A stretch of DNA of 64,000 nt. Origin: a virus (Duplodnaviria > Heunggongvirae > Uroviricota > Caudoviricetes). Numbering within the stretch: position 1 is the stretch's first letter; the number at the start of each line of letters is the position of its first letter. This document shows positions 17,411-45,720 of the stretch, in pieces. The notes below the pieces were generated by a model. That model ran no database searches. It worked only from the letters and a program-made list of their open reading frames with translations, and was not told the origin of the DNA. The stretch covers positions 1 to 64,000 of the IMG/VR virus record IMGVR_UViG_3300012956_000001; one strand, given 5' to 3'. Both the position numbers and the translations under genes were made by a program.

Positions 17411-18393
17411 ATGTCTACTAAAGAGCGTTTGATCGGGTATATTCTGTTAGCCCTCATGGGTCTATGGATGGGCATGGCCATGGCTGACGTAATGATGCAC
17501 GTATACCGACATGCTGAATTAGTGGACACCTATCGGATCTTCATGCTCGCTCCTCTCGTGTGGTTCGTGGTATACCTTGGTGCAAAGTTCTATTCAAAGG
17601 CTGAAACGGCCATCATCGTCATGGCGACAGCCATTCCATTCTCTTTAGCGCTCATCGATATTAAGAGCTATCTATCGCTAGCGCTCATTCATAGCGCTCT
17701 CGCATACCACGTTTACAAGCTTCATAGAGACATCCCCGATGACCCTTGACATCATGCAACTGCTCGCCGGTCTTGCAATGGTTCACATCGATGACGAAGA
17801 ATTCACTTTAACGTTCCCCACTGTAACACCAATCATGGAAAGCTTTACTAGTGAAGTACCTGACCCACCCGAAGAAACACCGAACCGAACAGAAACCGAA
17901 TAAAACCCGAACAAACCCCGAAAGGGCCAAAATTCGTAAAGTGTTGCCACGCAACAACTTAGAGCTTCTCAAGTCACTTAACTTGAGAGGCTCTAAACGC
18001 ATATGGCCCAAGCGCTTACAAAAAGCATGCGTCACCTCAGAAGATGCTTTAACTCACCTCACATATCACGTTATATCAGATATTCCAAATGGTGGTATAT
18101 ATAGACTTAGCGAGAAGTATAATATAAAGGATGAGGCATAAGCGTTAACGCTTTTGTTTTCAACCATTTAGGGAGCTTTCGGGACATGTTCGGGAAAGCC
18201 CCAGAAAAAACAAGCACGGAATATACCGCCAGGTACGCACGCCCACAAGTGCTAGCAGCCGAATGTTACACAATCGTTACAAACCGGGAATTGTAACGAA
18301 CAGATTACAATTCGCCAGGAGACTTGTGGATCGCCCTCGAGCAGTCTATATTACGGGGTTACGACAATAGACTCTAAAACAGGAAATCGAAAA

Positions 18394-19260
18394 ATGAGCA
18401 CTACTCTCCCGGTCAAGCGTGGTCGCGGTCGCCCGAAGAAGGCGGATGCTCTTGCTATGGAAGCGGCTCGGATTGCCGCCCTCCGCAAGACGAACGAAAC
18501 TCCGGCGGAACGTGTCGCTCGCATCGGTGAGCGGTTTACCGTTATGTATCGCCTCGCGCAGGGCGTCATTAACGGAATGGTTCGCTCGCTCATTGTCTCC
18601 GGTGCTCCGGGTACGGGCAAGACGCACACTCTTGACCACCTGCTCCAGACTGCCGCGGATCGTGATACGATTCGGTACACCGCCATCCGCGGTAACGTGA
18701 CGGGTGTTAACCTTTACAAGTTGCTCTTTCACAACAGCGGCGCCAATTGTGTCGTGTTGCTTGACGACACCGATTCGATTTATGAGGACGAAGATTGTAT
18801 GAACGTTCTCAAGGCGGCGCTCGACACTTCCGCCGTCCGCAAGATTTCCTGGCTTTCGGAATCGTCCGCGTTGAAGTCTGAGGATATCCCGACTTCGTTT
18901 GTGTTCGAAGGCGCGATGATCTTTATTACCAACAAGGATTTCCAGGCAATGATTGACGACGGCCGTAACAAGATGGTGCCGCACTTCCGGGCACTTATGT
19001 CGCGGTCAATCTATCTTGACCTGAAGCTCCACACTCTTGACGACCTTATCGCCTGGGTGTCGCATATGGTGCTCAAGAATCACATTCTGGTCCAGCGTGG
19101 TCTGAGCAACGCGCAGGAGTTGGAGGCGGTTCGTTGGTTGCAGGACAATCATACGCAGGTGCGGACTCTCGACATTCGCACCGCCCTGCTCATCGCGGAC
19201 TTCATTAAGACGGACGCGACCAGTTGGGAAACGTTCGCCAAGGTGACTCTGCTCCGGTAG
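18394..19260 (+). CDS. P-loop AAA+ ATPase with N-terminal AT-hook
   Basis: KRGRGRPKK; GAPGTGKT; VVLLDDTD; IFITN; ALMSR. Confidence 0.8.
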   Translation: MSTTLPVKRGRGRPKKADALAMEAARIAALRKTNETPAERVARIGERFTVMYRLAQGVINGMVRSLIVSGAPGTGKTHTLDHLLQTAADRDTIRYTAIRGNVTGVNLYKLLFHNSGANCVVLLDDTDSIYEDEDCMNVLKAALDTSAVRKISWLSESSALKSEDIPTSFVFEGAMIFITNKDFQAMIDDGRNKMVPHFRALMSRSIYLDLKLHTLDDLIAWVSHMVLKNHILVQRGLSNAQELEAVRWLQDNHTQVRTLDIRTALLIADFIKTDATSWETFAKVTLLR

Positions 19261-19283
19261 TATTCACCAAAATTCAAAAATGG

Positions 19284-19315
19284 AAAATGCTCCTTTCGGG
19301 GAGCATTTTTCTTTC
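19284..19315 (+). terminator. intrinsic terminator
   Basis: AAAATGCTCC-TTTCGG-GGAGCATTTT followed by T-rich tail. Confidence 0.75.
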
Positions 19316-19443
19316 CCCAAATCCTGGAGCTCGGTCCCCAATTGTAACGAAATTTTGGTCGCTTGACATTTGTGATTCATGGATGTATATTTTATCCATG
19401 TTGAGAGCAGGACCATACGCAGTTAAACCACACAGGAGGTCAC

Positions 19444-19698
19444 ATGTCCGTCAACAAGCCCAAGTCCACGTTCAAGGCCCTGCAGGTGCTCCGTACGAAG
19501 GTTGCCACTCGCGTCAAGGATTTCCGCCTCGGCGTCGGCACCCGAATCGTCGTGGTCAACTTTAAGGATGGTGTCATCACGGCCCGCGTCGCCGATCCCG
19601 CGAAGGAGAAGGCGAAGGGTGTCCGGCTGACGCTCAAGCCTAGTGAGGTCGAGACCACCCAGCGCGGCCGGCCTCGTAACCCGGAGGTGACCGCCTAA
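19444..19698 (+). CDS. small basic protein with RGRP (AT-hook-like) tail
   Basis: RBS AGGAGG; QRGRPR. Confidence 0.65.
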   Translation: MSVNKPKSTFKALQVLRTKVATRVKDFRLGVGTRIVVVNFKDGVITARVADPAKEKAKGVRLTLKPSEVETTQRGRPRNPEVTA

Positions 19699-19870
19699 GG
19701 TCAACTACTAAACCAAAACGAAAGAAAACAAAGATTAGGATCAAATGATACGGGGGCCCCGGCAGAAATGTCGGGGTTTCTCGTACTCCCCGGTTTGTAA
19801 CGAAATTTTGACCCGCTTGACTGATTATGTACTTGACCCTATATTACGTCAACTTCAACAGGGGAACACA

Positions 19871-20260
19871 ATGGCGGTTACGACGAAGGCAGTCAAGGTC
19901 ACGAACATCGACCGGGGATCGGTCAATGCCCTTCGTGGTGAAATCAACACCGCGCTCAAGAACGTGCTCGACAAGCATGGACTGATTGGTGTTATCGGTA
20001 ACATTACGTTCTCGCCTGGGGCCAATTTCCGTTGCAAGTTGACGGTTTCTCAACCCAAGGCGCCGCGTACTGGCCCCGTTGCAACGCCGAAGGTCGGGGA
20101 TGTGTGGTTGTTCGGCGCCAAGAGCTACACTATCGCCGAGGTTCGTGGTGCTGACGTTGTGGTGGAAAACGTCAACGCTCGTCCGAAGTGGGGCCGTCCG
20201 GCCAAGCGGTACCGCATCACCATCGCCAAGTTGCAGTCTGACGGAACCTTTCTCCGGTAA
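19871..20260 (+). CDS. hypothetical protein
   Basis: Own promoter and RBS; MAVTTKAVK start. Confidence 0.6.
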   Translation: MAVTTKAVKVTNIDRGSVNALRGEINTALKNVLDKHGLIGVIGNITFSPGANFRCKLTVSQPKAPRTGPVATPKVGDVWLFGAKSYTIAEVRGADVVVENVNARPKWGRPAKRYRITIAKLQSDGTFLR

Positions 20261-20266
20261 TCAACG

Positions 20267-20767
20267 ATGAAGCTCAACGTCTATCTCCGGTATTACAAGG
20301 CATTCGAAAATGTGCCCGATGAAGTAATACCGGAGCTCGCCAAGCTCAACCTCGGTCACTGCGGCATCATGAAGGAATATGTGCCCGTCTGTGACGGCAA
20401 GATTGTAAAAACGAAGGTGCCCTGCTATTGGAATAACGACGGGTACTATTACGAACATCGGTGTTCCAAGTGCAATGGCGAACACTACAATCAGAGCATG
20501 ACGGCCAAGCGGCATATCGTCGTCGCGTATGATGGACGGACTGACAAGGCCGTAGGCTGGTCAATGGTGGACAAGCACGATCATATCAACATCTTTGTTG
20601 CACGTCGGTGGCGCAAGAAGGGCCTCGCCACGCGGATCGTGGTCCACGGCTGTAAGTACCTGCCCAAGACGATTAAGGTCCACACCGAGAAGGCCCGAAA
20701 CGTGGTTATCGAGGCGTCAAAGCGATCCAAGTTCAAGAAGGTGGTTCCGGGCTGGGATTGGTGTTAA
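20267..20767 (+). CDS. GNAT-like acetyltransferase
   Basis: AVGW, IFVARRWRKKGLAT (acetyl-CoA binding motif A). Confidence 0.65.
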   Translation: MKLNVYLRYYKAFENVPDEVIPELAKLNLGHCGIMKEYVPVCDGKIVKTKVPCYWNNDGYYYEHRCSKCNGEHYNQSMTAKRHIVVAYDGRTDKAVGWSMVDKHDHINIFVARRWRKKGLATRIVVHGCKYLPKTIKVHTEKARNVVIEASKRSKFKKVVPGWDWC

Positions 20768-20941
20768 AAGGATATTCCCCTTAACCGGGGAATAATCCCC
20801 GGATTGTAACGAAAAAAGCATACTATAGTATCCCTTAACCGACTTAAGCGATAGTATAGTATGCTTTTCCCCGGATTGTAACGAAATTTGCCAGGCACCG
20901 GACACTATAGTATATTAGATCATACTCAAATGGAGACACCA

Positions 20942-21184
20942 ATGCTCGCCAATGACATCAAGAAGGGCACCGCCGTCAGGCTTAGCAACGGATGGGAGGC
21001 CGAAATCCTCGACAACAAGAAGGGTTCCATTCGTATGGCTAAGGTTTACGGTGACTACACCGAAATTGGCAGCGTGTATGTCAAGGACATTAAGATGGTG
21101 TGGTCGGTCGATCACTGGGTTCCGGTTGAACTCTCCGATGCTCAGAAGAAGGCAGCGGCCGCTCAAGCTGCTTGGGGATTCTAA
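20942..21184 (+). CDS. small hypothetical phage protein
   Basis: Cassette promoter, GGAG RBS; MLANDIKKG. Confidence 0.6.
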   Translation: MLANDIKKGTAVRLSNGWEAEILDNKKGSIRMAKVYGDYTEIGSVYVKDIKMVWSVDHWVPVELSDAQKKAAAAQAAWGF

Positions 21185-21287
21185 CCGTGAATCACGTAAT
21201 CGAAGTAATCGCGTTTTTCCTTATCACCTTCTGGGCCCAGCGGGAAGATTGTCGCTTGGCTCTTATCGCCAACCGAGGAGTATAATC

Positions 21288-22030: not shown

Positions 22031-22178
22031 TCCAAAATGTACAAATTACCAGAAAACCGGGATTTGTACACCCCAATTGTAACAAAACACCCCGTTTGTA
22101 ACGAAATCGGGTCACCCCTTCCCTTTTGAGCGTTCCCGTTGTATAATTCCCGTATAACCTAAACGGAGTTACACGGTA

Positions 22179-24470
22179 ATGGAAATCAAGGTCGAAACGC
22201 ACGATGTGTCCACGGCTGGTCTGCTCGAGCGCCGCAAGTATGGCGTGGACGCGGGTGCCGCGATGTTCGCACTGACGAATCTGTACCGTAATCCGATTGA
22301 CGCCATTGTGCGGGAGTACGCGACGAATATGTACGACGCGTGGCTCGCACTCAAGCGTGAACGTCCCGACGCCACCTTCAAGGCGCCGGAGATTGTGCTG
22401 CCTGGGCCGTTGGATTCGTCCATCGTGTTCCGTGACTACGGCATTGGTATGTCGGTGGACACGGTTTGGAATAAGTTTATGTGGTTCGGTGGGACCACTA
22501 AGAACCTGTCGAACGATGAAGTCGGCGGGTTCGGTCTGGGCTGTAAGACGGCGAACTGCTACAATGGTGGGAGCGCCTGGACGATTGAGAGCCGCTATGA
22601 CGGCGAGCTCCACAGCTTTATGTGTTTCCTCGCGGAAGATGGATCGCCTGACGGTGCTCACGTTTCGACGGTCCCGACGACTGAGCGAAATGGTATCACG
22701 GTGACGATTCCCATTCGTCGTGAGGATCACCAGAAGGTGCGGGATGCGGTGGCGAAGTACCTGCCTTTTTTCCCGACTGATGTAAAGCTCGTCGGCGGTA
22801 CGTTCGACCGCCCTGCCTATGTGCTCAAGGGTAACGGGTGGGGCATCCGTGCGACCGTCAAGAATTACCATAATTCGGATATTACTAATATCGTAATGGG
22901 GAACGTGCCGTATCCGCTCCCGATTTCCGAAATGGAAAGCTTCGGAATCGTTCGCCCGACTGGTATTGACCGTGACGCGTGGGGCCGGTTTCTGGGACAG
23001 ACGCCGATTGACCTGACGGTGCCCATCGGTTCGATTGACATTGTTCCGTCGCGGGACAATATGCGGAATACGGACAAGACCAAGGCCGCCGTCAAGTACG
23101 CGTGGGACGCGATGATGGACGATCTGGTGAAGCAGTTTAGCAAGGAGCTCGACAAGGCGCCGACCGCGTGGGACGCGATCAAGATGTATGACGAGCTCAC
23201 GAATAAGTCCGGCACGGGCAAGATTCTGCCTGCCGTGATTTACAAGGGAACGCGGTACGAGGGTCGCGCCATTCGGGTCACGCTGAAGGAACTCCTGGCC
23301 GCCGATCCGACTGCCACGGTCACGCGGTACACGATCACAAACTCGGACATTGCTACGCCCGAAGTTGCGGACCTGACGAAGCTCGATGATGTAATGTGGG
23401 TCCGTCCCCAGCGTGGGAACGAATGGGACCATCGGGTTTTGCTGCCCAACGAATCGTTGCTGATGATTGACGATCTGGGTGCTCGTGGCGGTGTCGCCGC
23501 TGCTCGGGCGGCCGTCCACAACGCCTTTGTGTCCAAGACGGCCAACGGTCGGGCTCGCCGGTATGGTCACACGGTCGGACAGGTGTACGCCATCACGACG
23601 AAGCTCACCGCCGATGAATTGTCGGTGCTCTTCGGTGGGTGTCCGTCAAACATCGTTCTGACTGCCTCGGTGGTTCGTGGAACGATGAAGGCGGTGCCCG
23701 GTGCTAAGGTTGCGGTGGTGGAAAACATCTACCGCTGGGGTGGCAGCTGGGGTGCACGTGTCAACATTCCCGACGACGGCACGGCCCGTTACTACGTCAC
23801 GCTCACAAAGAATAATGCGGGAAAGTGGGTTTATCGGGACAAGGCGTATAGTCAGGCAGAGGAAATGCGGAGTGTCGCACGCGCGATGGAAGTTATGAAG
23901 CTCGACAAGGATACGCCTATTTATGGGTGTCGCCCTGACGATGTTAAGAATCTTCCGACGAGCTGGGTCAATCTCGAAACTCTCGCCGTGAAGATGTTCA
24001 CCGACTTTGTGACGACGAACGCCACGGCGATTGCTCGGTCGCGGCAGAAGGTGTCCGATGAAGTTACCGCCCTGGCGACGCTCGTGTACCATATCTCAAG
24101 CGATAAGACCAGCGGGATGGGCGGCCGGTATTCGTCGGTGTCCGCCGCGGCGAATCTGCACGGTATGCCGTCTGATCTGGTGGACTTCTACAACGCCTAT
24201 TGTGTCGGTCACTCCGCTGAGACCTCAAAGATTGTTGCAACGACCGATCTGTATGGCGGGTTGGTTGACAAGGACATTCGCGCCGCTCGCATTAACGTTG
24301 CGGTGAAGGATGAGAAGATGCCCAACTTGTCCAAGACCTATATTGCCCTCGCGTCGAAGTATCCGATGCTCCCGGTCCTGGCGTCCCTTAACCACAATTC
24401 GTATAATTCAATTTCCTCGAATAATCACCACAAGAAGATCACGCTTGACTATATCGCTACACTCGCTTAA
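22179..24470 (+). CDS. rIIA: RIIA-like protein with N-terminal GHKL ATPase
   Basis: LY.NPIDAIVREYATNMYDA, RDYGIGMS, TTK..SNDEVGGFGLGCK; adjacent to rIIB. Confidence 0.85.
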   Translation: MEIKVETHDVSTAGLLERRKYGVDAGAAMFALTNLYRNPIDAIVREYATNMYDAWLALKRERPDATFKAPEIVLPGPLDSSIVFRDYGIGMSVDTVWNKFMWFGGTTKNLSNDEVGGFGLGCKTANCYNGGSAWTIESRYDGELHSFMCFLAEDGSPDGAHVSTVPTTERNGITVTIPIRREDHQKVRDAVAKYLPFFPTDVKLVGGTFDRPAYVLKGNGWGIRATVKNYHNSDITNIVMGNVPYPLPISEMESFGIVRPTGIDRDAWGRFLGQTPIDLTVPIGSIDIVPSRDNMRNTDKTKAAVKYAWDAMMDDLVKQFSKELDKAPTAWDAIKMYDELTNKSGTGKILPAVIYKGTRYEGRAIRVTLKELLAADPTATVTRYTITNSDIATPEVADLTKLDDVMWVRPQRGNEWDHRVLLPNESLLMIDDLGARGGVAAARAAVHNAFVSKTANGRARRYGHTVGQVYAITTKLTADELSVLFGGCPSNIVLTASVVRGTMKAVPGAKVAVVENIYRWGGSWGARVNIPDDGTARYYVTLTKNNAGKWVYRDKAYSQAEEMRSVARAMEVMKLDKDTPIYGCRPDDVKNLPTSWVNLETLAVKMFTDFVTTNATAIARSRQKVSDEVTALATLVYHISSDKTSGMGGRYSSVSAAANLHGMPSDLVDFYNAYCVGHSAETSKIVATTDLYGGLVDKDIRAARINVAVKDEKMPNLSKTYIALASKYPMLPVLASLNHNSYNSISSNNHHKKITLDYIATLA

Positions 24471-24507
24471 GTTTGTACCATACCACTCACCACAAAGGAA
24501 CGAACAA

Positions 24508-25710
24508 ATGACTACACACAACGCTTCACTCGTCACCGCCGCTGGCATTCTGATCTTCACCAATGGTCAGATGATGACGATTGCCAACGACCACCCGAAC
24601 GCCGGGAAGATTCGTGATGCACTTTCGTCTGGGGATTACACCCTGGCGCTCGATCTTGCCGACACCAAGGCCGTCGCACGCAAGTGGCTGTCCAAGGACA
24701 AGGACTTCGCCCTTGACGGTTCGACTGTCACGCTCCACGGCGATCCGTTCTCGGTCGCGGTCACGGAGAAGGTTCTTTCGATGATCGAGGCCGGCTCGAA
24801 TCCCGATCCGCTCTTTAACTTTCTTCGGAAGGTTCGGAAGAATCCGTCCCGTACCGCTCAGGAAGAGCTGCTGCTCTTCTGTGTCGCCAACGGCTTTATG
24901 ATCCACGAAGATGGCGACATTATCGCCTACAAGTCCCTTCGTGGCGACTACAAGGACATTCACTCCGGTACTGTCCTGGCGAAGCCCGCTCACCTGATGA
25001 CTCCGGCGGAACTCACGCAGTATGGTTCGGGCGTCAAGCAGGGCGATGTGACCACGCAGGTTGTGAACGGTGTCACGACCATTTCGATGGCTCGTCACAA
25101 GGTTGACGACCGCCGCGATGTGACCTGCTCGGTCGGTCTGCACTTCGCCGCTCACAAGTATGCTTCGACTTGGGCGGGAGCGATTGACGGCGTGAACCGT
25201 CGCCTGATCGTGATGAAGGTCAACCCGGCGGATGTGGTTTCGATTCCGTCCGACTATCACAACGAGAAGGGTCGCTGCTGGTCCTACCAGGCGATTGCCG
25301 AACTGGGCAACGCCAACCCGATGCCCAAGAAGGAAGTCTATACCCCGGCGGATTGTGGGTGTCCTCCGGGCGTCTGTGAGGCCGCTGCCGATCACTCGGT
25401 CATCGTGACGATCACGTTTGATGACGATGCCACGAATCGTGAACACCAGCGCGCAGACCTTCGCACGGAGATCGCCGACCTTGACCGTGAGATCGCCAAG
25501 AAGGATGCCACGTTCAAGAAGTTTGATGCGGAGCGTGTCTCGCTTGAGAATACAGCCCAGCAGGTTCGTGACCTCGGCGGCTATCCGGGCGGCACCATCA
25601 CCGGACGGCTCGCTCGGGTTCGGGAGATTCTGCAGGATGTTAGCGCGGAACTGTCTGAACTCCTCGCCGACCGGCGTGAGGCCGCGCAGGAGTTGGCTGA
25701 CCTCCGTTAA
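24508..25710 (+). CDS. rIIB: RIIB-like protein
   Basis: DGDIIAYK..RGDYKDIHSG, CSVGLH, KVNPADVVSIPSDY..KGRC. Confidence 0.88.
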   Translation: MTTHNASLVTAAGILIFTNGQMMTIANDHPNAGKIRDALSSGDYTLALDLADTKAVARKWLSKDKDFALDGSTVTLHGDPFSVAVTEKVLSMIEAGSNPDPLFNFLRKVRKNPSRTAQEELLLFCVANGFMIHEDGDIIAYKSLRGDYKDIHSGTVLAKPAHLMTPAELTQYGSGVKQGDVTTQVVNGVTTISMARHKVDDRRDVTCSVGLHFAAHKYASTWAGAIDGVNRRLIVMKVNPADVVSIPSDYHNEKGRCWSYQAIAELGNANPMPKKEVYTPADCGCPPGVCEAAADHSVIVTITFDDDATNREHQRADLRTEIADLDREIAKKDATFKKFDAERVSLENTAQQVRDLGGYPGGTITGRLARVREILQDVSAELSELLADRREAAQELADLR

Positions 25711-25846
25711 TCGGATAAACCAATAATGGGACTTTTGGGGCCAGAAATGGTCCCAAAACCCCCGTTTGTAACGAACCTAAGCGCTTATGGGGCACCAACT
25801 TAGGTGACCCCTTGACTTTTGGATACAACTAGGCTATATTCAATCT

Positions 25847-28958: not shown

Positions 28959-29309
28959 GCTTATACCCCTAAACCGAAACGACCGTGACTCCTTTCCGGT
29001 ATGTACCGCAAATGGATAGTCGTTCGGTGAAAGAATCGTAGAGCCGGTGAATAAATTATAGAATGATAGATATGTAAGTTTTGTACTTAATATCTATACG
29101 CTATTCCGGCACCTAATGACCTTGACTTGTGAAGCATCGCAACCCCCCTGAAAGGAAACCGTCTATCCCTCCCGACGGCATCAAACCTTTCAGGGGGTTT
29201 GTATTTACCCCAATTGTAACGATTTCGGCCCTTGACAAACCCCTTTAGGGGTATTAAGTTTCCCGAAGTCAAGTAATCAACCTATTCGCTAAAGGGAGCG
29301 AAAAAACAA

Positions 29310-30503
29310 ATGGAAAAGGATACGGTTTTTGCGCCGAGCATCGGCACAGTGGTTCGGGTGGAGAAGTTCGGGGACACGTACCGGGCGACTCTGCCTGATG
29401 GTGCGGATGTGACCGAGCATTTCGAGAATTATCAGTTGCGGAATGCCGTCAAGGAAGGCATGGCGCTCAAGCTCGTGGAGACGAACACGGGTTCGACGCA
29501 GTGGCGGAAGGTGTCGCCGGCGGAGTTCACCGAACGTGCCAAGAACGCCCTCCCCGACCAGGCATCGGCGACGATGGATCACGACAAGATTGTTCAGTTC
29601 CTTCGGAACGCCTCGGCGGTTCGCCCTGAGTCGTACAAGATGGACGACCTCAAGTGGCGCTTCTCCGTGCGGACGGTGCTCCGTGGTAAGAATATGATGA
29701 TTACCGGCCCGAAGGGTACGGGCAAGACGGTGCTCGCGTTCACCCTTCGTGATACGCTCAATCGTCCGTTCTTCAACATTCCGCTCGGCGCTACGCAGGA
29801 CCCGCGCTCGACGCTCATCGGTAACGTACACTTCGATCCCGAGCGTGGCACGTATCTGGGTGAGGCCGAGTTCATTCGGGCGATTCAGACTCCTGACGCG
29901 ATCATCCTGCTCGACGAAATCACCCGCGCCCATCCTGACGCGTGGAACATTCTGATGAGCGCCCTCGACTACAAGCAGCGGTTCGTCCGTATTGACGAGG
30001 CGCCGGATTCGCCCGTCATCAACGTTGCTCCAGGCGTGACGTTCATCGCCACCGCCAACATCGGTTCGCAGTACACCGCGACCCGTACCCTTGACGCCGC
30101 ACTCACGGATCGTTTCATCGTGGTTGAGGTTGAGTATCTGGGCAAGGAGCAGGAATTCGAGCTCCTCCGTCAGCGGGTGCCGGGTGTTGACGAGCGAGTG
30201 TTGAACTCCCTCACCAACGCGGCGATTGATCTTCGGAAGGATGCCCGCTCGAGTGACCCGCGTATTACGGAAGGTCTGAGCACGCGGTCCACAATCGAAA
30301 TGGCCGAGCTCATTTACGACGGGTTCACCTTTCAGGAAGCGGCCGCGCTGGTCATCTATCCGCAGTATTCTGAAGCGGGTGGTGCCGACTCCGAGCGTGC
30401 CTATGTCAAGCAGATCGTCCAGAAGCACATTCCGACGAACCTTGACGACAAGGCTGCACCGTTCAATCTTGACCCGAACAATGGGGAATTGCCTTGGGCG
30501 TAA
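29310..30503 (+). CDS. MoxR/CobS-like AAA+ ATPase
   Basis: GPKGTGKT, ILLDEITR, FIATAN, LDAALTDRF, STR; near the CobT-like VWA gene. Confidence 0.9.
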   Translation: MEKDTVFAPSIGTVVRVEKFGDTYRATLPDGADVTEHFENYQLRNAVKEGMALKLVETNTGSTQWRKVSPAEFTERAKNALPDQASATMDHDKIVQFLRNASAVRPESYKMDDLKWRFSVRTVLRGKNMMITGPKGTGKTVLAFTLRDTLNRPFFNIPLGATQDPRSTLIGNVHFDPERGTYLGEAEFIRAIQTPDAIILLDEITRAHPDAWNILMSALDYKQRFVRIDEAPDSPVINVAPGVTFIATANIGSQYTATRTLDAALTDRFIVVEVEYLGKEQEFELLRQRVPGVDERVLNSLTNAAIDLRKDARSSDPRITEGLSTRSTIEMAELIYDGFTFQEAAALVIYPQYSEAGGADSERAYVKQIVQKHIPTNLDDKAAPFNLDPNNGELPWA

Positions 30504-30643
30504 TTCATTAACGCCAATAAGGTAATAATCGTGGTGGGGTGGCCCTTTCCGCTCCACCACGATTCGGGGAATTGTAACGAAATTACTCCTATTGACTTTG
30601 ACAAATAACAGGGTATATTGAGTCATACACCAACGGAGTAGAT

Positions 30644-31681: not shown

Positions 31682-31778
31682 AATCCCCCGATTGTAACGA
31701 AATCTTCACACTTTCCTATACCCTTGCCGGCGTGACCCGGTGGGGGTATATTTGGTTATAACCTTTTAGGAGAGTCGC

Positions 31779-32483
31779 ATGAAGCTGTTGACGGTAGGCA
31801 ATCCCAAGATCGCCAAGGGCGAGAAGCTCGGTTATATGACTTCCATCCTGCACCTGGCGCCGTCGTGGCTGTCCGGCTTCAATACCTGCCCGATGGCGAC
31901 CGCCGGCTGCTCGGCCGCTTGCTTGAATACTGCCGGTCGGGGTGGGATTATCAAGCGTGGGGAGACTACCAACGCAATCCAAAAGGCTCGGATTGCTAAG
32001 ACGCTTCGCTTTTTCAACGAACGGGATGCGTTTATGACGCAGCTCGTAAAGGAAATTAACAACGCGATCAAGCTCGCGGCGAAGCACGACCTGATTCCGG
32101 TTTTCCGGTTGAACGGTACTAGCGATATTCGCTGGGAGACTATCGCTGTCGCCGGGGCGAGCAACATCTTCGAGCTGTTCCCGACTGTACAGTTTTACGA
32201 TTACACGAAGATTCCAAATCGTCGGAACATTCCGGCGAATTACGACCTGACGTTTTCTCTTGCTGAAGATAACGACCGGAAGGCTCTGGCCGCTCGCAAT
32301 CTGAAAATGAATATTGCCGTAGTGTTTAAGTCTGTTCCCTCGCACTTCCTTGTCGGCAACGTAATGGTGCCGGTAATCGACGGCGACGCAAGCGACCTTC
32401 GTTTTCTTGACCCCAAGGGCGTCATCATCGGATTGAAGGCCAAGGGTAAGGCCAAGAACGATACCACCGGCTTTGTCCGGTAG
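31779..32483 (+). CDS. Gp88-like Cys-motif protein
   Basis: CPMATAGCSAACL, RLNGTSDI.WE, FYDYTK, D.SDLRFLDP..IIGLKAKG. Confidence 0.75.
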   Translation: MKLLTVGNPKIAKGEKLGYMTSILHLAPSWLSGFNTCPMATAGCSAACLNTAGRGGIIKRGETTNAIQKARIAKTLRFFNERDAFMTQLVKEINNAIKLAAKHDLIPVFRLNGTSDIRWETIAVAGASNIFELFPTVQFYDYTKIPNRRNIPANYDLTFSLAEDNDRKALAARNLKMNIAVVFKSVPSHFLVGNVMVPVIDGDASDLRFLDPKGVIIGLKAKGKAKNDTTGFVR

Positions 32484-32863: not shown

Positions 32864-32981
32864 TCGATATTCCCTCGGAGCAATCCGGGGGAACGTCGTG
32901 CGGGGGATTGTAACGAACGGGTGGACCGCTTGACCTCGCTCCTACGCGGTGGTATATTAGGTCATCTCAAATGGGGGTACT

Positions 32982-33521: not shown

Positions 33522-33640
33522 GAGCCGGGTGGCCCAGTGAAAACTGGGTCACACGCCCCGGTTTGTAACGAAATGTTTTTCCGCTTGACGAATACCAGAA
33601 AACCCGTATATTTGGTCATAACCTTTACGGAGTATCACCG

Positions 33641-34240: not shown

Positions 34241-34362
34241 AATCCAATAATGTGACGACTCCGAGAGGAGCGTCACCCCGGTTTGTAACGAAATTTTGAC
34301 CCGCTTGACGGGGTTGAGAAATCTTCTATATTTGGTCATAACCTTTACGGAGTGACGTACCA

Positions 34363-35019: not shown

Positions 35020-35143
35020 ATAATTCAAATAGGGGCGCTCTTCACCGGGCGCTCCACGCCCCGGTTTGTAACGAAATGTTTGCTCCCTTGACGGATCGCC
35101 AGTGTACCTGTATATTACATCATAACCTTAACGGAGTAACACA

Positions 35144-35335: not shown

Positions 35336-35345
35336 GGAGCGTCAA

Positions 35346-35726: not shown

Positions 35727-37173
35727 TCCAATTGTGACAATTCCAGATAATCGGAATTGTTACAAACGGGGAATTGACCCTTGACAGGTGATGTACCATA
35801 GGGTATATTTTATCAACTTCAATAGGGATCTATCAATGCTTGAACTCGTCAACGTCTGTTATAGCTGCAAGATTCGACTGAATATCAACGTCGAAGCAAC
35901 TAAGCGCAGGTCGGGTGGATGGGTGTGTGAGCATTGTATTGTCGAGATGGACATTGCGGAACTCCGCAGTGATCTTGCACATTATCAGGCGGCTAATCAA
36001 TACCCGACATTTAATTATGCTGGGGAGATTGATGTTCTGACCACAAAGTTAGCGACTATGGGTGACAGAATTCCGCTGGACATTCAATAGACTTTGTGGT
36101 ATATTCTGTCATACGATTTAACGGGAGCAATCAATGAAGTTTGATCATCGGGTGGGTCGCAAGATTTTGGGTGGGTTCTACATCCCATTCATTGGCCGCA
36201 TTACTACCACACAGCGATATGCCACGACGCTCAAGTATCTGGGCGATTGTGGCTGGAATCTGAAGCGGTGGCCCTATCGTGACAAGCATATGTTCGGAAT
36301 CTCGCTTGTCGTTCCTGACACCAAGGGGAAAACAACCAATGTTGTGTAATAACTGCAACGAACCGCATACGGACGAATCTTTCCGTAATCCGCCGTGTGT
36401 CTTGCACGCCCTGCTCGCGGTGGCTATCGAGGGTGACCACTGCACGGTGGAACAGGCACAGGACATTCTGGATCGGATCGCTTCCGATGCCGTGTGGATG
36501 GAATTGGGCGAACTGACCGACCGCATCCTGCAGGGTGACTTCAATCTCACGGACGAAGAACTGGGGCGTGTGTAATGATTCGCAAGTCTATGTTCACCAA
36601 GTCGGCTGACTTTGAGGCACGAGTCATCAAAGCAATGTCGTTTGCTACCGGCTTTGCTGCGGGCGTTGAAGTTCTCACGCCGATGGAAGTGGCCGAAACC
36701 GTCCTCAATTGCACCGAGGAAACCGAGGGCCAGACCGAGAAGTTTCTTATCTGGCAGGAAGCCTTGGATCGACTGTCGATTCTTGCCCACGGCGCCTAAA
36801 TAAAAAACGACTATTCCTTCGCGGAGTAGTCCCCCGTTTGTAACGAAAGTTGCCAGAATTGGGCACACGCAGTATATTGGATCATACTCAAACGGAGCAC
36901 TACCAATGTCTACGTTCGCTGATCGCAAGACCGAAGCTCGCCGGAAGGGATTTGCCAAGTGGTTTTGTAACGTGGTGGCAATCCATCCGTATCTGGGTGT
37001 GATGGTTATGATTTTGATGGCTCCTATCCTTCTACTGGCAACCGCTGGCATCGGTGCCGTGGAAGCTGTCGGTGATGGTCTGGGGTCCGTGCGGTCTTCG
37101 ATCCGTTCTATGCTCAATATTGCCCGGAAGGACTAGTCTGGGTATATTTGTAAATCGTTAAACGGAGAAACAA

Positions 37174-38120: not shown

Positions 38121-38891
38121 ATTAATCGAATATCCTTTAACCGGGATATTCGCCCCCGTTTGTAACGAAATTCGATCACGCTTGACGTTAATCAGAAATG
38201 ATGTATATTAGATCATACTCAAACGGGGACACGAAAATGAAGGCGTTCAACATCTGGCTCAGCGGCAACCTTCTCGATACCGTATTCATGACCGATGATA
38301 TGGATGAGTCGGATGTGTACTTTCAGCTCACCAACAGTGGTGAGTTTGACGCCGAAATCACCGTCGAAGAAGTGGAGATGTAAATGCTCAAGCTCATCGC
38401 TGTTGGTATGATCGCTCCGCGGTCGCAGAACAAGGAAGTCATTCAGGACTTCACCAAGCGCCATTTCGGTCCTGGCGTTGGCACGTACACGGGTGTCTCG
38501 AGCACGCACTCAGCGGTCGTGTTTGTGGACCCCTCGGCTCCTCTCGGCAAGATGGAAGGCGTATGCTAACAATGGACACCGGACGAAAGTCCGGTCAGTC
38601 CCCGGTTTGTAACGAAAGTTGCCATATTTTTGATTACTAGGTATATTCATTTAACGTCAAATGGAGATATCGATGGAAGATGCCCTGGCTTCATTCTTCG
38701 CAGAAATTCTTTGGGCGATCCTTAGCAACCTACCCAGCTGGGTCTTTGTCGAGGTAGTGCTGGGCATCATCATCGGGACGGCCATTCGGGCAATGCTGGA
38801 TCGGTATGCCGAGTATCGCCACGACAAGCTTCGGTCTTGACAGATAGGGCACCACGCTGTATATTAGATCATACTCAAACGGAGCCACACA

Positions 38892-39325: not shown

Positions 39326-40394
39326 CGTACCCCCAATTGTAACGAAAGTTGCCATATTTTTGATTACTAGGTATATTCATTCAACTTCAACAGGGAATCA
39401 ACAATGTCTGCTCCTCGCTGCTGTGACTGGTGTGATGTGGAGATGCCCAACGGCGCTTTGATTAATGCCGACCATGGCGATTTTTGTTCACAGGATTGTG
39501 AGCAGGACGCCGAGTGTGAGATCGCCGAGGAGGAGTATGATGGCCAGCCCTCGGAAATGGATGAATGGCTGAGTTTCGATCCCGATTGCTGATATTCATT
39601 TAACCGGAGATTTACAATGATCGAAGACGGCGAAGTGTAGTTTATCGGAATTGTGGCCGTGTTTTTCCTGGCACTCATCGGGTTCAAGGTGACCGAGGTC
39701 GTAAAACAGAATAGCACGGAGAGGTTCTGCCTCGCCCATGGCTATTCTCGGGCCGACTGGCGGTTTGTCGGCGAGTCGTATTGTATCACTCGAACCGACC
39801 AGACGGACATCGTGGTTCCGCTGAGCAAGGTCAAGTAACTAGAAAGTGCTCTAGAGGAGCTTAATGGGGCCTGATCGGGCCCCACTTTCAGTTATCCCCG
39901 TTTGTAACGAAAATTTTGGTCGCTTGACGGATAGTGCCAGTAAGAGTATATTATATCATAACCTTAACGGAGTATGACGATGGCTCGCACGGTCTCGACG
40001 TTTCAGGATGTGTCCACGGGTGCCCGCACGGTGATTATCGCCGGCGAGTGTGTGTTCGGTGGTGGTCACTACTCCGTTGAGGTGACGGAGCAGGCGTGGA
40101 ACGATTACAAGGGCGGCATGCTGGTTCAGAATGCCTTCCCGAATCTCTCGGCGGATGATCGGGAGTTTATCATCTCGGGCATTTCGCCCAAGGGCTGGGC
40201 CGACACCTTCGGAGGCGAGTCGTGAAAAACGACAGATTGTTGGCCGCGAGCTGCTTGATGCTGAGCGTCATCTGCATGGCAAGTGTAGTCGCGGTGCCGC
40301 CGGGAACCAGCCTGGTTGTCTGTGGGGCGTTGGGCTACGCAGCGGGAATGTTGCTTGTGTCCGGCGGCTTTCTCGCCTGGATGACTCGCCCCTA

Positions 40395-40796: not shown

Positions 40797-41318
40797 GTCG
40801 GGGAATTGTAACGAAAGTTGCCAACGCCGGATCATTGTAGTATATTGAGGTAACGAATCAAACGGAGTGTTACCGTGATGTGGAATCCGATGTCAACAGC
40901 GCCGAGGGATGGGACGTACTTTCTTGCCAAGATCGAATGGGAAGATGTGCCTGTCGTGGCGTGTTGGCTTGAGGGTCGCAACAGTCCGTCAGTTGATTCG
41001 ACGGGGTTGGATGCACAAGGCGGCTGGGATGGGGCGATCATCGTTCAATGGCAGTCAAATGTATTTATTGGTTGGCTCCCACTGCCGGAATACACCGGAA
41101 CGGAGAAGTTCTAATGAAGCTCGTCACCGAATATCGTAATTTTTCGATCTATCTTACGCGTGATAACGAATACTTCGCGCCTGCTCTTGATCGACTACAT
41201 ACTCGAAAGACGCTCAAGACCACCAAGAAGGATATCGACCGGCGGATCGCCATAGAAAATCGACGACTTGCCAATGACGGGACATTGTAGTATATTGTAG
41301 GACGTTCATTGAAAATCT

Positions 41319-41393: not shown

Positions 41394-41399
41394 TATCTT

Positions 41400-42262: not shown

Positions 42263-42334
42263 TGCTCCTTCGTCTAATTGGCAAGACTGCGGACTTTGGA
42301 TCCGCGTATGAAGGTTCGAATCCTTCGGGAGCAG
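42263..42334 (+). tRNA. tRNA-Gln(TTG)
   Basis: Cloverleaf; loop CTTTGGA. Confidence 0.92.
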
Positions 42335-42387
42335 CTCGTCAAGCCTAAAGACGCTAAAACAGGCAATACTCTAACAAAGGATAATTC

Positions 42388-42681
42388 ATGAAGACATTGT
42401 TCAAGGTCGTGGCGCCTCTTGCGCTTCTTTTTGCTGTTGCTTGTAGTGAAGCCACCACGTTGCCTGAAATGGCAGTCAAGCCAAGCATGACTGAGGAAGT
42501 AGCAGGATGTTTCCATTCGGTCGGCGGCACTGCTTGTGGTGAAATTGGCGGTGATCGTATGTGGATCAACTGTCCGGTTCACACCGCCAACGACCATTGG
42601 TACGAAGATGGACACACCATGTATTACACGGACCAACACTCGGTATCGTGGGCAACTAGCAAGTGTATGTTGGAAAGCTAA
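42388..42681 (+). CDS. putative lipoprotein
   Basis: Signal peptide with lipobox-like FAVAC. Confidence 0.6.
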   Translation: MKTLFKVVAPLALLFAVACSEATTLPEMAVKPSMTEEVAGCFHSVGGTACGEIGGDRMWINCPVHTANDHWYEDGHTMYYTDQHSVSWATSKCMLES

Positions 42682-42749
42682 CACTCGGGGAATTGTAACG
42701 AAATACCCTATGGCTTGCCCACACCGGAGCCATAGGGTATATTAATATA

Positions 42750-42846
42750 TGAACGTGACGGCCGAGGGGGCCTTCGAGAAGTCCGAGACGCGAAAGCGGA
42801 GTAGGCAACCAAATGCTCGAGTGGGGTTCGACTCCCCAACGTTCAC
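42750..42846 (+). ncRNA. tRNA-like small RNA with non-canonical core
   Basis: TGAACGT/ACGTTCA terminal stem, TGGGG-TTCGACT-CCCCA T arm, own promoter. Confidence 0.55.
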
Positions 42847-42865
42847 TCAACACTTAGGAGGATGT

Positions 42866-43201
42866 ATGTCGCGGAAGATGATTCAGATGTTCGCAGAAAT
42901 TCGTGGTCCATCGTCTGGCACGATTGACGAGCTGATCAAGCACGTTGAGTCGTTGAAGAAGAAGTACGGCGGCGACGCCGGCGTGTCCGAGGATGAGGAC
43001 GGGATGTGGACCATTGCCTACAAGCGGCCTGAAACCGACGACGAGTACGAGAAGCGGATGGCTCGTGCCGAACGGAACAAGGAAGCGAACGACAAGCGGA
43101 AGGCCACCCAGGCGTTGCAGAAGGAGCGGGCAGCCAAGATCGCCGAGGCACAAGAGAAGAAGCTATTTGAACGGCTCAAGGCCAAGTACGAGGGGAAGTA
43201 A
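42866..43201 (+). CDS. hypothetical protein
   Basis: RBS AGGAGG; RPETDDEYEKR..ERLKAKY. Confidence 0.65.
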   Translation: MSRKMIQMFAEIRGPSSGTIDELIKHVESLKKKYGGDAGVSEDEDGMWTIAYKRPETDDEYEKRMARAERNKEANDKRKATQALQKERAAKIAEAQEKKLFERLKAKYEGK

Positions 43202-43762
43202 CATGAAAATGGAAAAGCGGTATTTCATTTACACCGAAGACTTCGACGCCAAGGGCGAGTTTGTTATGTCCCTGCAACGTCCGTGGCGCTGGTCGTCAAG
43301 TAAGTGAATTGCTCCTTCGGGAGCGCTCACCCGGAATTGTAACGAAATGTTTGCCAACGTTCGTACTCTCGTGTATATTAGATCATACTCAAATGGAGTT
43401 AATCGTGACCGAGCTTGACCAGTGTAAGAGTGTTGCAGATCGGTGGGAACGGGCTGCCATTCGGGCTCACAAGCGGCTGTTGAAGTGGGCCGAGGATGCC
43501 GAGATGATAAAGCTCGCCCATGACGACTTGGCCGAACATATGCACGGCGTGAAGCTCCTTCGTAAGGGCAAGATCGTTGAGGCATACAACTACGCGTCCT
43601 ATATGGACACGGCTTCCCGCGAGGACATTCCGGTAACGGTGTGGCGATACCTCGAAACGCGGGGTTGACAACAGACGGACCAGTATGTATATTGTTGGTG
43701 TGACGGGGAAGTTCCCAATGTTCCGGGTCATAGACAGTTACGGCGGGCCCTCGTCACAATTT

Positions 43763-43835
43763 GCTTCGATAGCTCAGATGGTAGAGCACCTGATTTGTAA
43801 TCAGGATGTCATCGGTTCGATCCCGATTCGAAGCT
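43763..43835 (+). tRNA. tRNA-Thr(TGT)
   Basis: Cloverleaf; loop TTTGTAA. Confidence 0.93.
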
Positions 43836-43838
43836 TAT

Positions 43839-43909
43839 GTTCTCGTGGCCAAGTGGCAAGGCAGGAGTCTGCAAAACTCCAATCGTCGGTTCGAATCCGA
43901 CCGGGGACT
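43839..43909 (+). tRNA. tRNA-Cys(GCA)
   Basis: Cloverleaf; loop CTGCAAA. Confidence 0.92.
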
Positions 43910-44071
43910 CTTGACAAGTAAAGAACAAAGATGTATATTGTAGGAGTTGGGGATTAGGAAAGTGGTTAATCTGCTTGGTTCGGTAAGGCCAAGAGACGTG
44001 GGTTCGATTCCCACATTCCCATTAAGGTCTTGACAAGTAAAGAACAAAGATGTATATTGTAGGAGTTGGGG
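43909..44071 (+). repeat. exact 44-bp direct duplication of a promoter (43909-43952 and 44028-44071)
   Basis: TCTTGACAAGTAAAGAACAAAGATGTATATTGTAGGAGTTGGGG occurs twice. Confidence 0.92.
43948..44022 (+). tRNA. atypical tRNA with enlarged anticodon loop
   Basis: TGGGGAT/ATTCCCA acceptor, CTTGG-TTCGGTAAGG-CCAAG, GTGGG-TTCGATT-CCCAC. Confidence 0.6.
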
Positions 44072-44459
44072 GTCGCTCGGCTAACTAACCGACTGTCATC
44101 TAAGCAATAGCGATGACCGACCCCAGATCGAGGGCCTTGTACGTTCACCCGCTAACTAACGAACGTACACCAATCTTTGACAATCGAAGGAACCGGGGCG
44201 AGTTGGTGTAATGGGAGATAACCGAGCGAGTTAAGTGGCGATAAGGGATTAGGTTTCACTCGAAAGAGTGTCAGGGTGAGCGAAAAGCAACCTCGTAATG
44301 ACCGAAGTTCCTAGTTTCGTCCTCGTAGAGTGAAGGCCTGATGGGTGAATGGACACCCTGCAACACATCCGACCACTGTCTGCAGGCAACTCGGAAGTTA
44401 GGGCTACGGCCCGCTCACCCAGGCAAGGGGAAGTCGCCCTTGCCTTTGAATCCCCGGTG
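44068..44459 (+). ncRNA. large structured ncRNA candidate
   Basis: No credible ORF, dedicated promoter, several local and long-range helices. Confidence 0.6.
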
Positions 44460-44477
44460 AAGTATATTATTAGTATA

Positions 44478-44552
44478 ATCAACATCGTCTAATGGCTTAG
44501 GACACTCTTCGGCGGACGCCGTGAAATGTGGGTTCGAATCCCACTGTTGATT
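44478..44552 (+). ncRNA. tRNA-like RNA with a 4-nt loop in place of the anticodon loop
   Basis: ATCAACA/TGTTGAT acceptor, normal D and T arms, CGGC-GGAC-GCCG. Confidence 0.6.
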
Positions 44553-44784
44553 TGTCAGTTCAATAAGGGTGACTGACTGGGAATCGGGTGAGGTAGGCAT
44601 ACCTCATTACGTGAACCGAAAACGGCCCTACGTCAGTAGCGAGAGTAAGGTGGCACGCCAAGCCACCGAAACCAATACGGCCAGGCACTGTATTGGCTTC
44701 TGACAAGAGTCGGGTGGAGCCGCCGACTTAAATCCACGGCCGCCAGGCGGGGCATGATGTGTTGTCACACAGATTACTCGCCTG

Positions 44785-44829
44785 AAAAGGTCGAAATTGC
44801 CAAATATCGGTGATTTCGACCTTTTGTTG
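44785..44829 (+). terminator. terminator hairpin
   Basis: AAAAGGTCGAAAT...ATTTCGACCTTTT. Confidence 0.7.
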
Positions 44830-45720
44830 TGCCCGGGATTGTAACGAAAGTGTACAATTGAACTGACCCCTTGACAGGCATTTCTGAGCCCTTATATTTC
44901 ACATATCTTCAACAGGGAACGATACGATGGGCTTTCTTCTGATTCTTGGTTCGATGTTCGGTGGCGCGGTGGTCATCAGCTGGTTGTCTGACCTCGCCAG
45001 GGCACGAAAGGAGGCAGACCTCCAACATCAGTTGAACATCGTCAAGCTCGCCTTTGAGAAGGAGGCGGTTGACAAGGCTGTGACCGTCAAGGAGCTTAAC
45101 CGTTGTATCTGTGGTGCCCCACTAGGAGCGTGTGATGATGAGTAATTGTTCTGAGTGTAACGACCTTGAAATCGATCTGAGCCGAGCGAACGCTCGAGCC
45201 GATGATGCCGAACACCGAGCGATGATGGCAGAGATGGATCTTCTCGCTGCCGAGCGGAGAATCCGAGAACTTGAACATGAGATTTTTGATCTCGAACGGC
45301 GTATCGAGCAGACTGATGACTGATTCAATTGACGCCGAACAGGCACATCGCCTGGCCCTGCACTTCGAAGCCGAATATGGGCTCGCCAAGGGCTTGGAAG
45401 AGGCAACAGCCAGGCTATCAAAGAGCTGGACCTTGGTGGCTCGCCGGCGTTTGGCTATGGCCATCGAGCTGCTCGAGAAGCGACTCGACAGCGTGCACAC
45501 GATCACTTGACAACCTAATGGGAATGGGGTATATTCCCATTAACCAATAACCCAAGGTATCTGACGATGGCTACTCAGGATGACGCACAGCCAGTGACCA
45601 GCCAGGACGCCCCGGCACCTAGCCAGGCCACGACACAGGTACCTTTTGACGAAGCTTGGGACGAGGCCGACTTGGAAGCCGAAGTGCGTCTCTTGCTTGA
45701 AATCGATTAAGGAGAATATC

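Follow-up and report, generated by a model that had tools for sequence, protein, structure and literature searches.

We analysed the first 64 kb (64,000 nucleotides, hereafter the window) of the complete 217,729-bp virus record IMGVR_UViG_3300012956_000001, which has terminal repeats and represents an uncultured, deep-branching T4-like jumbo myovirus, and we focused on a short intergenic sequence, TTGTAACGA (the box), repeated throughout its early gene block. The phage genome is labelled G000, and the other L- and G- labels denote comparison contigs and genomes. The box lies one to four whole helical turns upstream of the -35 hexamer of early promoters, it keeps this register in relatives of the phage, and its reverse complement contains one unit of HLR1, the site of the cyanobacterial regulator RpaB. 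On these patterns, we consider the chances about even that a host RpaB-like response regulator acts at the box at whole helical turns, and that the early accessory block would thereby follow the signalling state of the host.

A sequence-only reading of this stretch had placed about 23 boxes between 18291 and 44880, and the count was borne out. The window contains 24 exact copies of TTGTAACGA, while dinucleotide shuffles averaged 0.68 copies and never exceeded 5; 24 of the 26 copies in the complete genome fall within 18,274-44,847. The copies are intergenic and, except for a single minus-strand copy at 18274-18282, lie on the plus strand (23 of 24), co-oriented with transcription. The conserved core extends to the 11-mer TTGTAACGAAA, with A at +9 in 22/23 copies and A at +10 in 19/23. 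Within the core, G at +2 and +7 and C at +6 are invariant, and the box is preceded at -7 to -3 by a run composed only of G and C (CCCCG/CGGGG type). The description of the box as a near-palindrome of TTGTWACAA holds literally, with a match at 8 of 9 positions, but the 23:1 strand bias and the invariant CGAAA tail show that the box is used asymmetrically. A second TGTAAC-like hexamer was not enriched in G000 at offsets of 6-30 on either side of the box.

Then, we measured the distance from the start of the box to the start of the -35 hexamer (d). Across 22 sites of G000, d was 12 bp (five sites), 14, 20, 21, 22 (eight sites), 23, 32, 32, 33, 34 and 46 bp; across nine sites of the relatives L099, L100 and L101, it was 13, 13, 13, 24, 33, 43, 44, 44 and 44 bp. 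Overall, the values cluster at 12-14, 20-24, 32-34 and 43-46 bp, and the best-fitting period in the Rayleigh test was 10.25-10.75 bp in G000 and in the relatives taken separately. The corresponding p-values (~2e-7 for the 22 sites of G000 and ~3e-4 for the nine sites of the relatives) overstate the independence of the sites, given the kinship by duplication among the promoter cassettes. For this reason, we put most weight on a permutation test over periods of 9-12 bp in which each distinct distance was counted once per genome (p=6e-4), and on the switching of spacing class at the rIIA promoter described below.

All the distances of the sequence-only reading were reproduced, including the 12-bp class (20876, 36838, 38607, 39337 and 40806), which always carries a TTGCCA -35, the 20-23 bp class (11 sites) and the 32-33 bp class (18291, 31692 and 44839). 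The distances of its three outliers (14, 18 and 46 bp) were also correct, but the 46-bp site is not an outlier: it falls on a fourth turn, where a relative has four sites at 43-44 bp. The only clearly off-phase site is that at 29214 (18 bp). The box is better aligned to the -35 than to the -10, as d remains 22 with a spacer of either 16 or 17 nt. Site positions that differ by integral helical turns are a feature of class I/II activators, and an invariant element on one face of the helix, at one to four turns from the -35, reads as the hallmark of a factor that would touch RNA polymerase. What argues for the earlier proposal of one factor working at integral turns is the geometry and the comparison among phages, which extend it from three turns to four.

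The typical promoter that follows the box consists of TTGAC(N) or TTGCCA, 16-17 nt and TATATT. Using the strict pattern TTG(A/C)C-N16-18-TATATT, we found 38 promoters on the plus and one on the minus strand of the whole genome; 22 of the 38 have a box and 16 do not. A separate consensus scan gave 32 promoter-like sites in the 18-38 kb region against 14.5 expected, about twice the shuffled number. Among the box-free promoters are the tRNA promoters at 41291, 43688, 43934, 44053 and 63055, which have the same type of -35 and -10. The box is not obligatory for early promoters, and the phage would thus possess both box-dependent and box-independent ones.

The box is also present in relatives that have diverged strongly at the protein level. 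The closest relative of the rIIA protein, on a 197-kb contig (protein P0002), is 59% identical, and metagenome contigs with rIIA 33-36% identical to that of G000 have the box. In the 9.9 kb of L099 it occurs seven times on the plus strand and four times on the minus strand, and it is also present in L100, L101, L102 and L106. The core is unchanged across the relatives while its 5' flank varies (CCCCGG in G000, TGTGG in L099, CGGACGA in L101). At the orthologous rIIA promoter, d is 23 in G000, L105, L106 and L191, 13 in L099 and L100, and 33 in L101: this promoter has switched spacing class and kept its register. The rIIA promoter has no -35 hexamer, and a conserved CCCTTCC(C/A)TT element is found 23 bp after the box in four phages (window 22077-22147; L105 1830-1870; L106 897-960; L191 15397-15470); the CTTCCATTC element of this promoter is likewise conserved in L105, L106 and L191. 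Promoters of the rIIA type may constitute a second, more box-dependent class.

In one relative, the box occurs mostly in a doubled form. On the 105-kb IMG/VR fragment IMGVR_UViG_3300044998_000260 (G004/L191), nearly all sites are tandems, TGTAAC(G/A)-N4/5-TGTAAC(A), in an 11-bp register, with the proximal unit 22-23 bp from a -35-like element. Other tandems in a 10- or 11-bp register were found at L099 3793, L099 -1014, in L102 and in G000 at 18282 (minus strand) and 44839. L191 also carries, at 2380-2720, a dense tandem array of about 340 bp made of 14- and 15-bp units (AGTTCTGAGC... and TGATCCAATCCGAGC).

No cultured phage matched the block by megablast or gp1 by tblastn, and rIIA had only distant matches (<32% identity). 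The closest cultured phage by DNA polymerase (PolB) is Microcystis phage Mel-JY01, with 39.6% identity; it has only 3 boxes in 190 kb, so the box system is not shared with it. When IMG/VR was scanned for the pattern CCC-N4-box, 82 single matches and no further multi-copy contig came up, and IMG/VR searches with single proteins found nothing. Three cassettes on a contig from a rumen metagenome-assembled genome (L162, JAFXNA010000009.1; positions 1544, 5935 and 7402) combine a stem-loop and a 9- to 11-mer of the core followed by CTTTACACAAAAA. In them TTGACA-N17-TATATT follows at d=38-39, which misses the phage grid by half a turn, and the contig has no proteins in common with G000; the cassettes were set aside as a probable coincidence, and this is probably another phage-like element.

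A published regulator site matches the box. HLR1 is a pair of (G/T)TTACA(T/A)(T/A) units, 2 nt apart, bound by the cyanobacterial OmpR-type regulator RpaB (10.1101/2023.12.07.570523). It activates when located 45-66 nt upstream of where transcription begins and represses elsewhere (10.1101/2023.12.07.570523; PMC6525291), and HLR1 sites in cyanophage genomes have already been mentioned (Riediger et al. 2019, PMC6525291). Read on the opposite strand, (A/T)TTGTAAC, positions -1 to +7 of the phage sequence, becomes GTTACAA(A/T), a perfect HLR1 unit at all 23 plus-strand boxes; the conserved AA that follows a two-base gap fits the W-W end of a second unit. A related member of the same regulator type, WalR/VicR, has the consensus TGTWAH-N5-TGTWAH (PMC4168254). 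TGTAAC/GTTACA units placed head to tail one helical turn apart, as in the tandems above, have the site architecture of the OmpR/PhoB family. Two direct repeats with a 2-nt gap (10-bp register) are not a feature of the G000 boxes; they occur at L099 3793 and in bacterial genomes. If transcription begins 7 nt beyond the -10, the 15 sites of the 22- and 33-bp classes would fall within -66 to -45, and those of the 12- and 44-bp classes outside.

Other identities were tried for the box and rejected. NtcA (GTA-N8-TAC), the TyrR box and the LexA box fit at most one palindromic site, that at 18291; an extracytoplasmic function (ECF) sigma -35 was discarded since it has no matching -10; and IHF, DnaA and boxA/nut were excluded on sequence. 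The only literature match to the 9-mer, a primer at the Acinetobacter ddrR-umuDAb promoter, was judged coincidental.

We also looked for the box in bacterial genomes. The tandem 16-mer TTGTAACGAAATGTAA was present in 26 of 121 genomes of Cyanobacteriota (the phylum of G005), with 40 matches against 3 for the control, and it was absent from the 101 genomes of Bacillota (the phylum of a Lactococcus) and from the 61 of Pseudomonadota (the phylum of an Alteromonas), with controls of 0 in both. The 11-mer occurred 223 times, against 137 for the control, in the 41 Cyanobacteriota genomes of up to 2.3 Mb. Five small genomes accounted for 48 copies against 6; photosystem reaction-centre genes were not found in these five, which are therefore non-photosynthetic members of the phylum. 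In them, 17 of 30 inspected sites were intergenic and 8 of the 30 continue as TTGTAACGAAA-TGTAA. Four promoters from small genomes (L199, L204, L220 and L221) follow the grid of the phage, with 23 bp between the box and a -35-like TTTAAA and 46 bp between the box and CATAAT. When the box was combined with the promoter pattern and one genome per species was scanned, 30 matches were obtained, about the number expected by chance, five of them in cyanobacteria; a genome of the Pseudanabaenaceae has the box at d=13 before TTGCCA-N17-TATATT, upstream of an hli gene whose product bears the chlorophyll-binding signature of high-light-inducible proteins. An Rfam search downstream of the bacterial box sites found nothing. 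A larger genome of the phylum (G106:C1, 6.7 Mb) holds arrays of 3-4 copies of TTGTAACGAAA, 21-103 bp apart, at 2147348-2147482, 5770390-5770504 and 6103756-6103889.

These results weaken two parts of the sequence-only reading, which had seen in the boxes an undescribed switch belonging to the phage itself. Against them stand the published HLR1 unit, to which the box corresponds on the opposite strand, the mention of HLR1 sites in cyanophage genomes, the enrichment of the tandem in Cyanobacteriota and not in the two other phyla sampled, the d=13 box at a cyanobacterial hli gene and the lack of a phage-encoded candidate in our searches.

Several observations weigh against a regulator of the RpaB type. 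HLR1 and the sites of the OmpR family are defined as pairs, and G000 conserves only the AA of the second unit: most of its sites are single units, with a second TGTAAC undetectable at +/-9 to 12 bp. The tandems of G004 follow an 11-bp register and HLR1 a 10-bp one, positions that are random in HLR1 (CG, A) are invariant in the phage, and the 12-bp class would centre the 18-bp site near -39, outside the published activating window. Moreover, the 11-mer alone is not enriched in 80 larger Cyanobacteriota genomes (183 against 350 for the control), and the cyanobacterial share of the promoter matches (5/30) is suggestive but not a test. Photosynthetic cyanobacteria are also rare in activated sludge, the source of the sample. 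To these adds the duplication kinship already considered with the raw p-values.

Taking both sides together, the host RpaB-like regulator is the explanation that we prefer, and it would work as follows. The box would be a cis-regulatory site, namely one high-affinity 11-bp unit of an OmpR/PhoB-type direct-repeat operator, with TGTAAC contacted through the major groove and GAAA through the minor groove next to it, a division that we infer. In about 22 early gene cassettes, the phage would have placed this unit after the terminator stem-loop and before the sigma70-type promoter. Assuming a start about 7 nt after the -10, the core would be centred near -42, -52, -63 or -74, always on the same face of the helix; the bound regulator would touch sigma region 4 in the 12-bp class and the alpha C-terminal domains in the 22-, 33- and 44-bp classes. 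Most likely the regulator activates, and expression of the early accessory block would then track the signalling state of the host, while the box-free early promoters, such as those of the tRNAs, would fire regardless. The host would lie in Cyanobacteriota and, given the activated-sludge source, is possibly a non-photosynthetic member of the phylum; the enrichment of the motif in that phylum and the Microcystis phage as the nearest cultured relative speak indirectly for this reading.

More tentatively, it is possible, though we would not expect it, that a whole clade of large T4-like phages from sludge, sediment and lake metagenomes infects Cyanobacteriota, perhaps the non-photosynthetic Vampirovibrionia, and gates almost its entire block of early accessory genes through an RpaB-like regulator on a grid of single units over four turns, a site grammar not described for regulators of the OmpR family. 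If true, this would give the first regulatory handle on, and a host link for, an uncultured phage group.

The rival that survives best replaces the host regulator with a phage-encoded protein of an unrecognised family, either carried in the virion or made early, which would bind the box and act on timing, by either boosting or shutting off the early promoters that carry it, as a functional analogue of T4 MotA or SPO1 TF1. The box is limited to one 27-kb block and to a small clade of relatives, single units with invariant spacer bases would suit a monomeric binder better than an OmpR-type dimer, and more than 80% of the block proteins are without family assignment. One candidate is the product of the first gene of the block (18394-19260), an AAA+ ATPase assigned to phrog_1250 with weak matches of the Cdc6/Hda type and an N-terminal AT-hook, KRGRGRP. 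This protein is the best conserved of the block (59-65% identity among G000, L099, L101 and L191). In four phages its gene is preceded by box clusters in both orientations, with clusters at the orthologue in L099, L102 and L191, and its promoter in G000 has the only multi-box, two-orientation cluster, as autoregulation would have it.

However, the AT-hook, seen by eye, was the sole DNA-binding feature: scans of about 35 block proteins against Pfam, PHROGs and NCBIfam gave no other DNA-binding family, and the MotA C-terminal domain (PF09158), AsiA (PF09010), a Trans_reg_C winged helix and sigma region 4 were not found in the complete phage genome. Sequence searches of the PDB with four conserved proteins gave nothing useful, and the AlphaFold model of the AAA+ protein, built on a 3-sequence alignment, was too poor for use (pLDDT 53). 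A phage protein would also leave unexplained why the 11-mer and its tandem are enriched upstream of genes, at the same spacing, in one bacterial phylum, and a factor for early promoters is needed already at injection. On balance, we regard a phage-encoded factor as unlikely but worth keeping in view.

A second rival denies the box any function of its own. T4-type phages are known to carry promoter-early stem-loop (PeSL) cassettes (Arbiol 2010, PMC2839356; Comeau 2014, PMC4122927), and the box could be a passive part of such mobile promoter-terminator units, its identity kept by duplication, gene conversion or recombination and its spacing classes being families by descent. The anatomy of the phage cassettes agrees with this (PMC4122927): the order is stem-loop, box, sigma70-type promoter, Shine-Dalgarno (SD) site and start codon, a strong fold usually precedes the box (17 of 23 upstream 60-mers at z <= -2), and at most sites 24-31 nt separate the -10 from the start codon, with the SD site in between. 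The AT-rich stretch that PeSLs have upstream of the -35 was not found; its place is taken by a box that contains G and C, with a G/C-only flank. Members of one spacing class have their -35 variant and leader in common. Module order differs between G000 and its divergent relatives L099, L105 and L191, in all three of which the GP88 module is upstream of rIIA, instead of downstream of rIIB as in G000.

Descent alone, however, does not predict a period of 10.5 bp. The sequence between the box and the -35 diverges freely within a class while the 9-11 bp core stays invariant, the core is identical at 35% protein identity although its flanks differ, and orthologous promoters have switched class yet kept phase; besides, 11 bp is too short as a substrate for recombination. 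Passive inheritance of the box therefore seems improbable to us.

The leaders themselves fall into two or three families of near-identical sequences after the -10 (20917-20950, 33613-33640, 36879-36905 and others), for example AGATCATACTCAAA(C/T)GGAG and GGTCATAACCTTTACGGAG, and all finish in GGAG-type SD sites. GGAG is the motif cleaved by T4 RegB in early mRNAs.

The box could otherwise be a UP-like element of unusual sequence specificity, recognised directly by the alpha C-terminal domains of host RNA polymerase, possibly after modification of alpha by the phage. Proximal and distal UP subsites lie near -42 and -52, matching two of the centres proposed above, and the tandem units of G004, one turn apart, would suit two alpha subunits. 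This alternative had already been raised in the sequence-only reading, and its positions fit, but its sequence does not: UP elements are A/T-rich, tolerant of sequence and located at -40 to -60, whereas the box has invariant G/C positions and a G/C-only flank. In addition, -63 and -74 are far for unaided binding of alpha, and many equally good promoters have no box. We consider an element of this kind highly improbable. Lastly, the many co-oriented, asymmetric, intergenic copies, and the iteron-like repeat cluster and initiator-clade AAA+ gene that adjoin the block, could fit an event at the DNA level, such as strand-specific nicking of the T5 or phiKMV type, binding of a replication or packaging protein, or a stoperator-like roadblock, but this is the least probable of all, as neither a constant helical register relative to the -35 nor its conservation across phages would be expected from any of these roles.

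The sites of the window are as follows. The block is headed by a divergent control region (18243-18352) with the boxes 18274-18282 (minus) and 18291-18299 (plus), arranged as TCGTTACAA-N8-TTGTAACGA and then TTACAA. Its rightward promoter on the plus strand (-35 TTGTGG 18324, -10 TATATT 18347, d=33) drives the AAA+/AT-hook gene. On the minus strand, a leftward mirror-image promoter, TTGTGG-N17-TATATT, has its -35 at 18248-18243 and its -10 at 18225-18220 (d=34). The leftward transcript (window 18120-18282) would span about 100 nt through two hairpins, with no ORF, and could represent a small RNA or an antisense transcript to the gene 17851-18141 at its 3' end.

All the other sites are on the plus strand. 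Among those with d=12, the first (20804-20916) has two boxes that flank a long hairpin, an additional copy at 20804 and, 72 bp downstream, that at 20876, from which the distance to the -35 (TTGCCA 20888, -10 20911) is counted. The others, again with TTGCCA, are 36838-36878 (-35 36850, -10 36873), 38607-38647 (38619, 38642), 39337-39377 (39349, 39372) and 40806-40846 (40818, 40841), and the site at 43337-43379 (TTGCCA 43351, -10 43374) has d=14.

On the second turn, d is 20 at 30572-30619 (-35 TTGACT 30592, spacer 16, -10 30614) and 21 at 19342-19391 (TTGACA 19363, -10 TATATT 19386). It is 22 at 19795-19845 (TTGACT 19817, -10 19840), at 32908-32958 (TTGACC 32930, -10 32953), at 42693-42743 (TTGCCC 42715, -10 42738) and at five sites with TTGACG: 33563-33612 (-35 33585, -10 33607), 34283-34332 (34305, 34327), 35066-35116 (35088, 35111), 38160-38209 (38182, 38204) and 39902-39952 (39924, 39947). 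The rIIA promoter (22077-22147) has a variant box, TTGTAACAA, at 22077 and a box at 22096, with CCCCTTCCCTTT in the place of the -35 (d=23) and the -10 TATAAT at 22142. A degenerate box, TTGTTACAA, precedes a promoter at 35757-35809 (TTGACA 35781, -10 35804, d=24).

Two sites have d=32: that of the GP88-family gene at 31692-31752 (TTGCCG 31724, -10 31747) and that at 44839-44898 (TTGACA 44871, -10 44893), a tandem form with TGTACA 11 bp after the box. The fourth-turn site is at 25766-25840 (TTGACT 25812, -10 25835, d=46). The off-phase box at 29214-29260 (TTGTAACGAT), upstream of the gene of a MoxR-type ATPase (29310-30503), has TTGACA 18 bp downstream and no clear -10.

Nearly all genes of the phage are on the plus strand, with rIIA at 22179-24470 and rIIB at 24310-25710, and the genome also encodes a family B DNA polymerase, baseplate wedge proteins, a ribonucleotide reductase and many tRNAs. 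DNA near-identical to the block was found in activated-sludge and wastewater metagenomes; no RNA data set was listed among those with the block. The early block (17000-48000) has 52-55% G+C, against about 42% in the remainder of the 218-kb genome, and homologous fragments in the relatives are likewise G+C-rich (49-55%); this could reflect a horizontal origin or a different constraint on early DNA. Just to the left of the boxes, at 17290-17415, there are four direct repeats of GTTAATTCAGCAT, 30-40 bp apart, the last of which overlaps the start of ORF 17411-17749, and the repeat cluster is found at the syntenic place in L099 (135-371) and L101 (456-1596). Together with the neighbouring initiator-clade AAA+/AT-hook gene, the cluster looks like an iteron-type origin or an operator. 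The gene at 31779-32483 encodes a protein of the GP88 family (PF17338), which is very large (4,983 clusters at E<=0.001, with identities of about 50% for many of them), with some members fused into proteins of 1,000-1,460 aa. Given this size and spread, GP88 was rejected as a clade-specific regulator.

If a host RpaB-like regulator does read the box, the first minutes of infection would be conditional on a two-component signal of the host at about 22 promoters, with the tRNA promoters exempt, and the phage would offer a large and clean natural case of early viral expression tied to a regulator of the host. The strict spacing by whole turns, from the first to the fourth, would then amount to an experiment made by nature on the ways in which an OmpR-type protein reaches RNA polymerase at varying distances. 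As a sequence-based clue, the motif would also help to find the host of an uncultured phage clade, and it would be a candidate regulon marker in the non-photosynthetic Cyanobacteriota, which are poorly studied. Should the reader be a phage protein instead, T4-like phages without MotA/AsiA would have an early-gene switch of a new kind.

Among known systems, HLR1/RpaB is close in that its 8-nt unit is the reverse complement of the phage sequence, its activation is reported at about 50 nt upstream, and the exact tandem form is enriched in genomes of Cyanobacteriota. It differs in that the phage has mostly single units, with invariant spacer bases and some 11-bp tandems, on four discrete turns that include about -42 and about -74, at about 22 promoters of one phage whose host is possibly non-photosynthetic. 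Cyanophage promoters are known to carry sites of host regulators, namely NtcA and PhoB boxes, and they resemble the present case in wiring early or auxiliary phage genes to a global regulator of the host; here the regulator family and the candidate host lineage are different and the sites are mostly single units.

In the CRP system, class I and class II sites lie near -41.5, -61.5 and -71.5 and thus differ by whole helical turns. As in CRP and Pho-box promoters, one type of site would work from positions whole turns apart, but CRP sites are palindromes bound by dimers, and CRP does not use -51.5. The Pho box of PhoB has the same unit architecture (7 bp + 4 bp); it replaces the -35, while the phage promoters usually keep a good one. 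The MotA/AsiA system of T4 also has a short asymmetric box, probably read by a monomeric domain, at prereplicative promoters including those of rIIA and rIIB. The Mot box, however, lies at -30 and replaces the -35, whereas the phage box is 12-46 bp upstream of a usually good -35, an arrangement that, together with the failure to find PF09158 and PF09010, sets these promoters apart from T4 middle promoters.

In cluster A mycobacteriophages, the phage repressor binds at any place within transcription units to stoperators, which are numerous, asymmetric, intergenic and oriented with transcription. The phage boxes are likewise co-oriented and intergenic, but their register relative to promoters is fixed, and a repressor gene was not identified in the phage. 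PeSL cassettes are similar in belonging to T4-like phages, in repeating the unit of stem-loop, sigma70-type early promoter, SD site and start codon, in preceding small genes without assigned function in a plastic region, and in the rearrangement of modules among relatives that PeSL shuffling predicts. PeSLs are generally AT-rich before the -35, while the phage cassettes have an invariant box, a G/C flank and helically quantised distances, and they gave no evidence of mini-circle or indel junctions. Sites for host regulators in phage promoters are thus already known in kind; what is new here is the scale of about 22 promoters, the grammar of single units on a four-turn grid, the conservation of this grid at orthologous promoters and the possible link to non-photosynthetic Cyanobacteriota.

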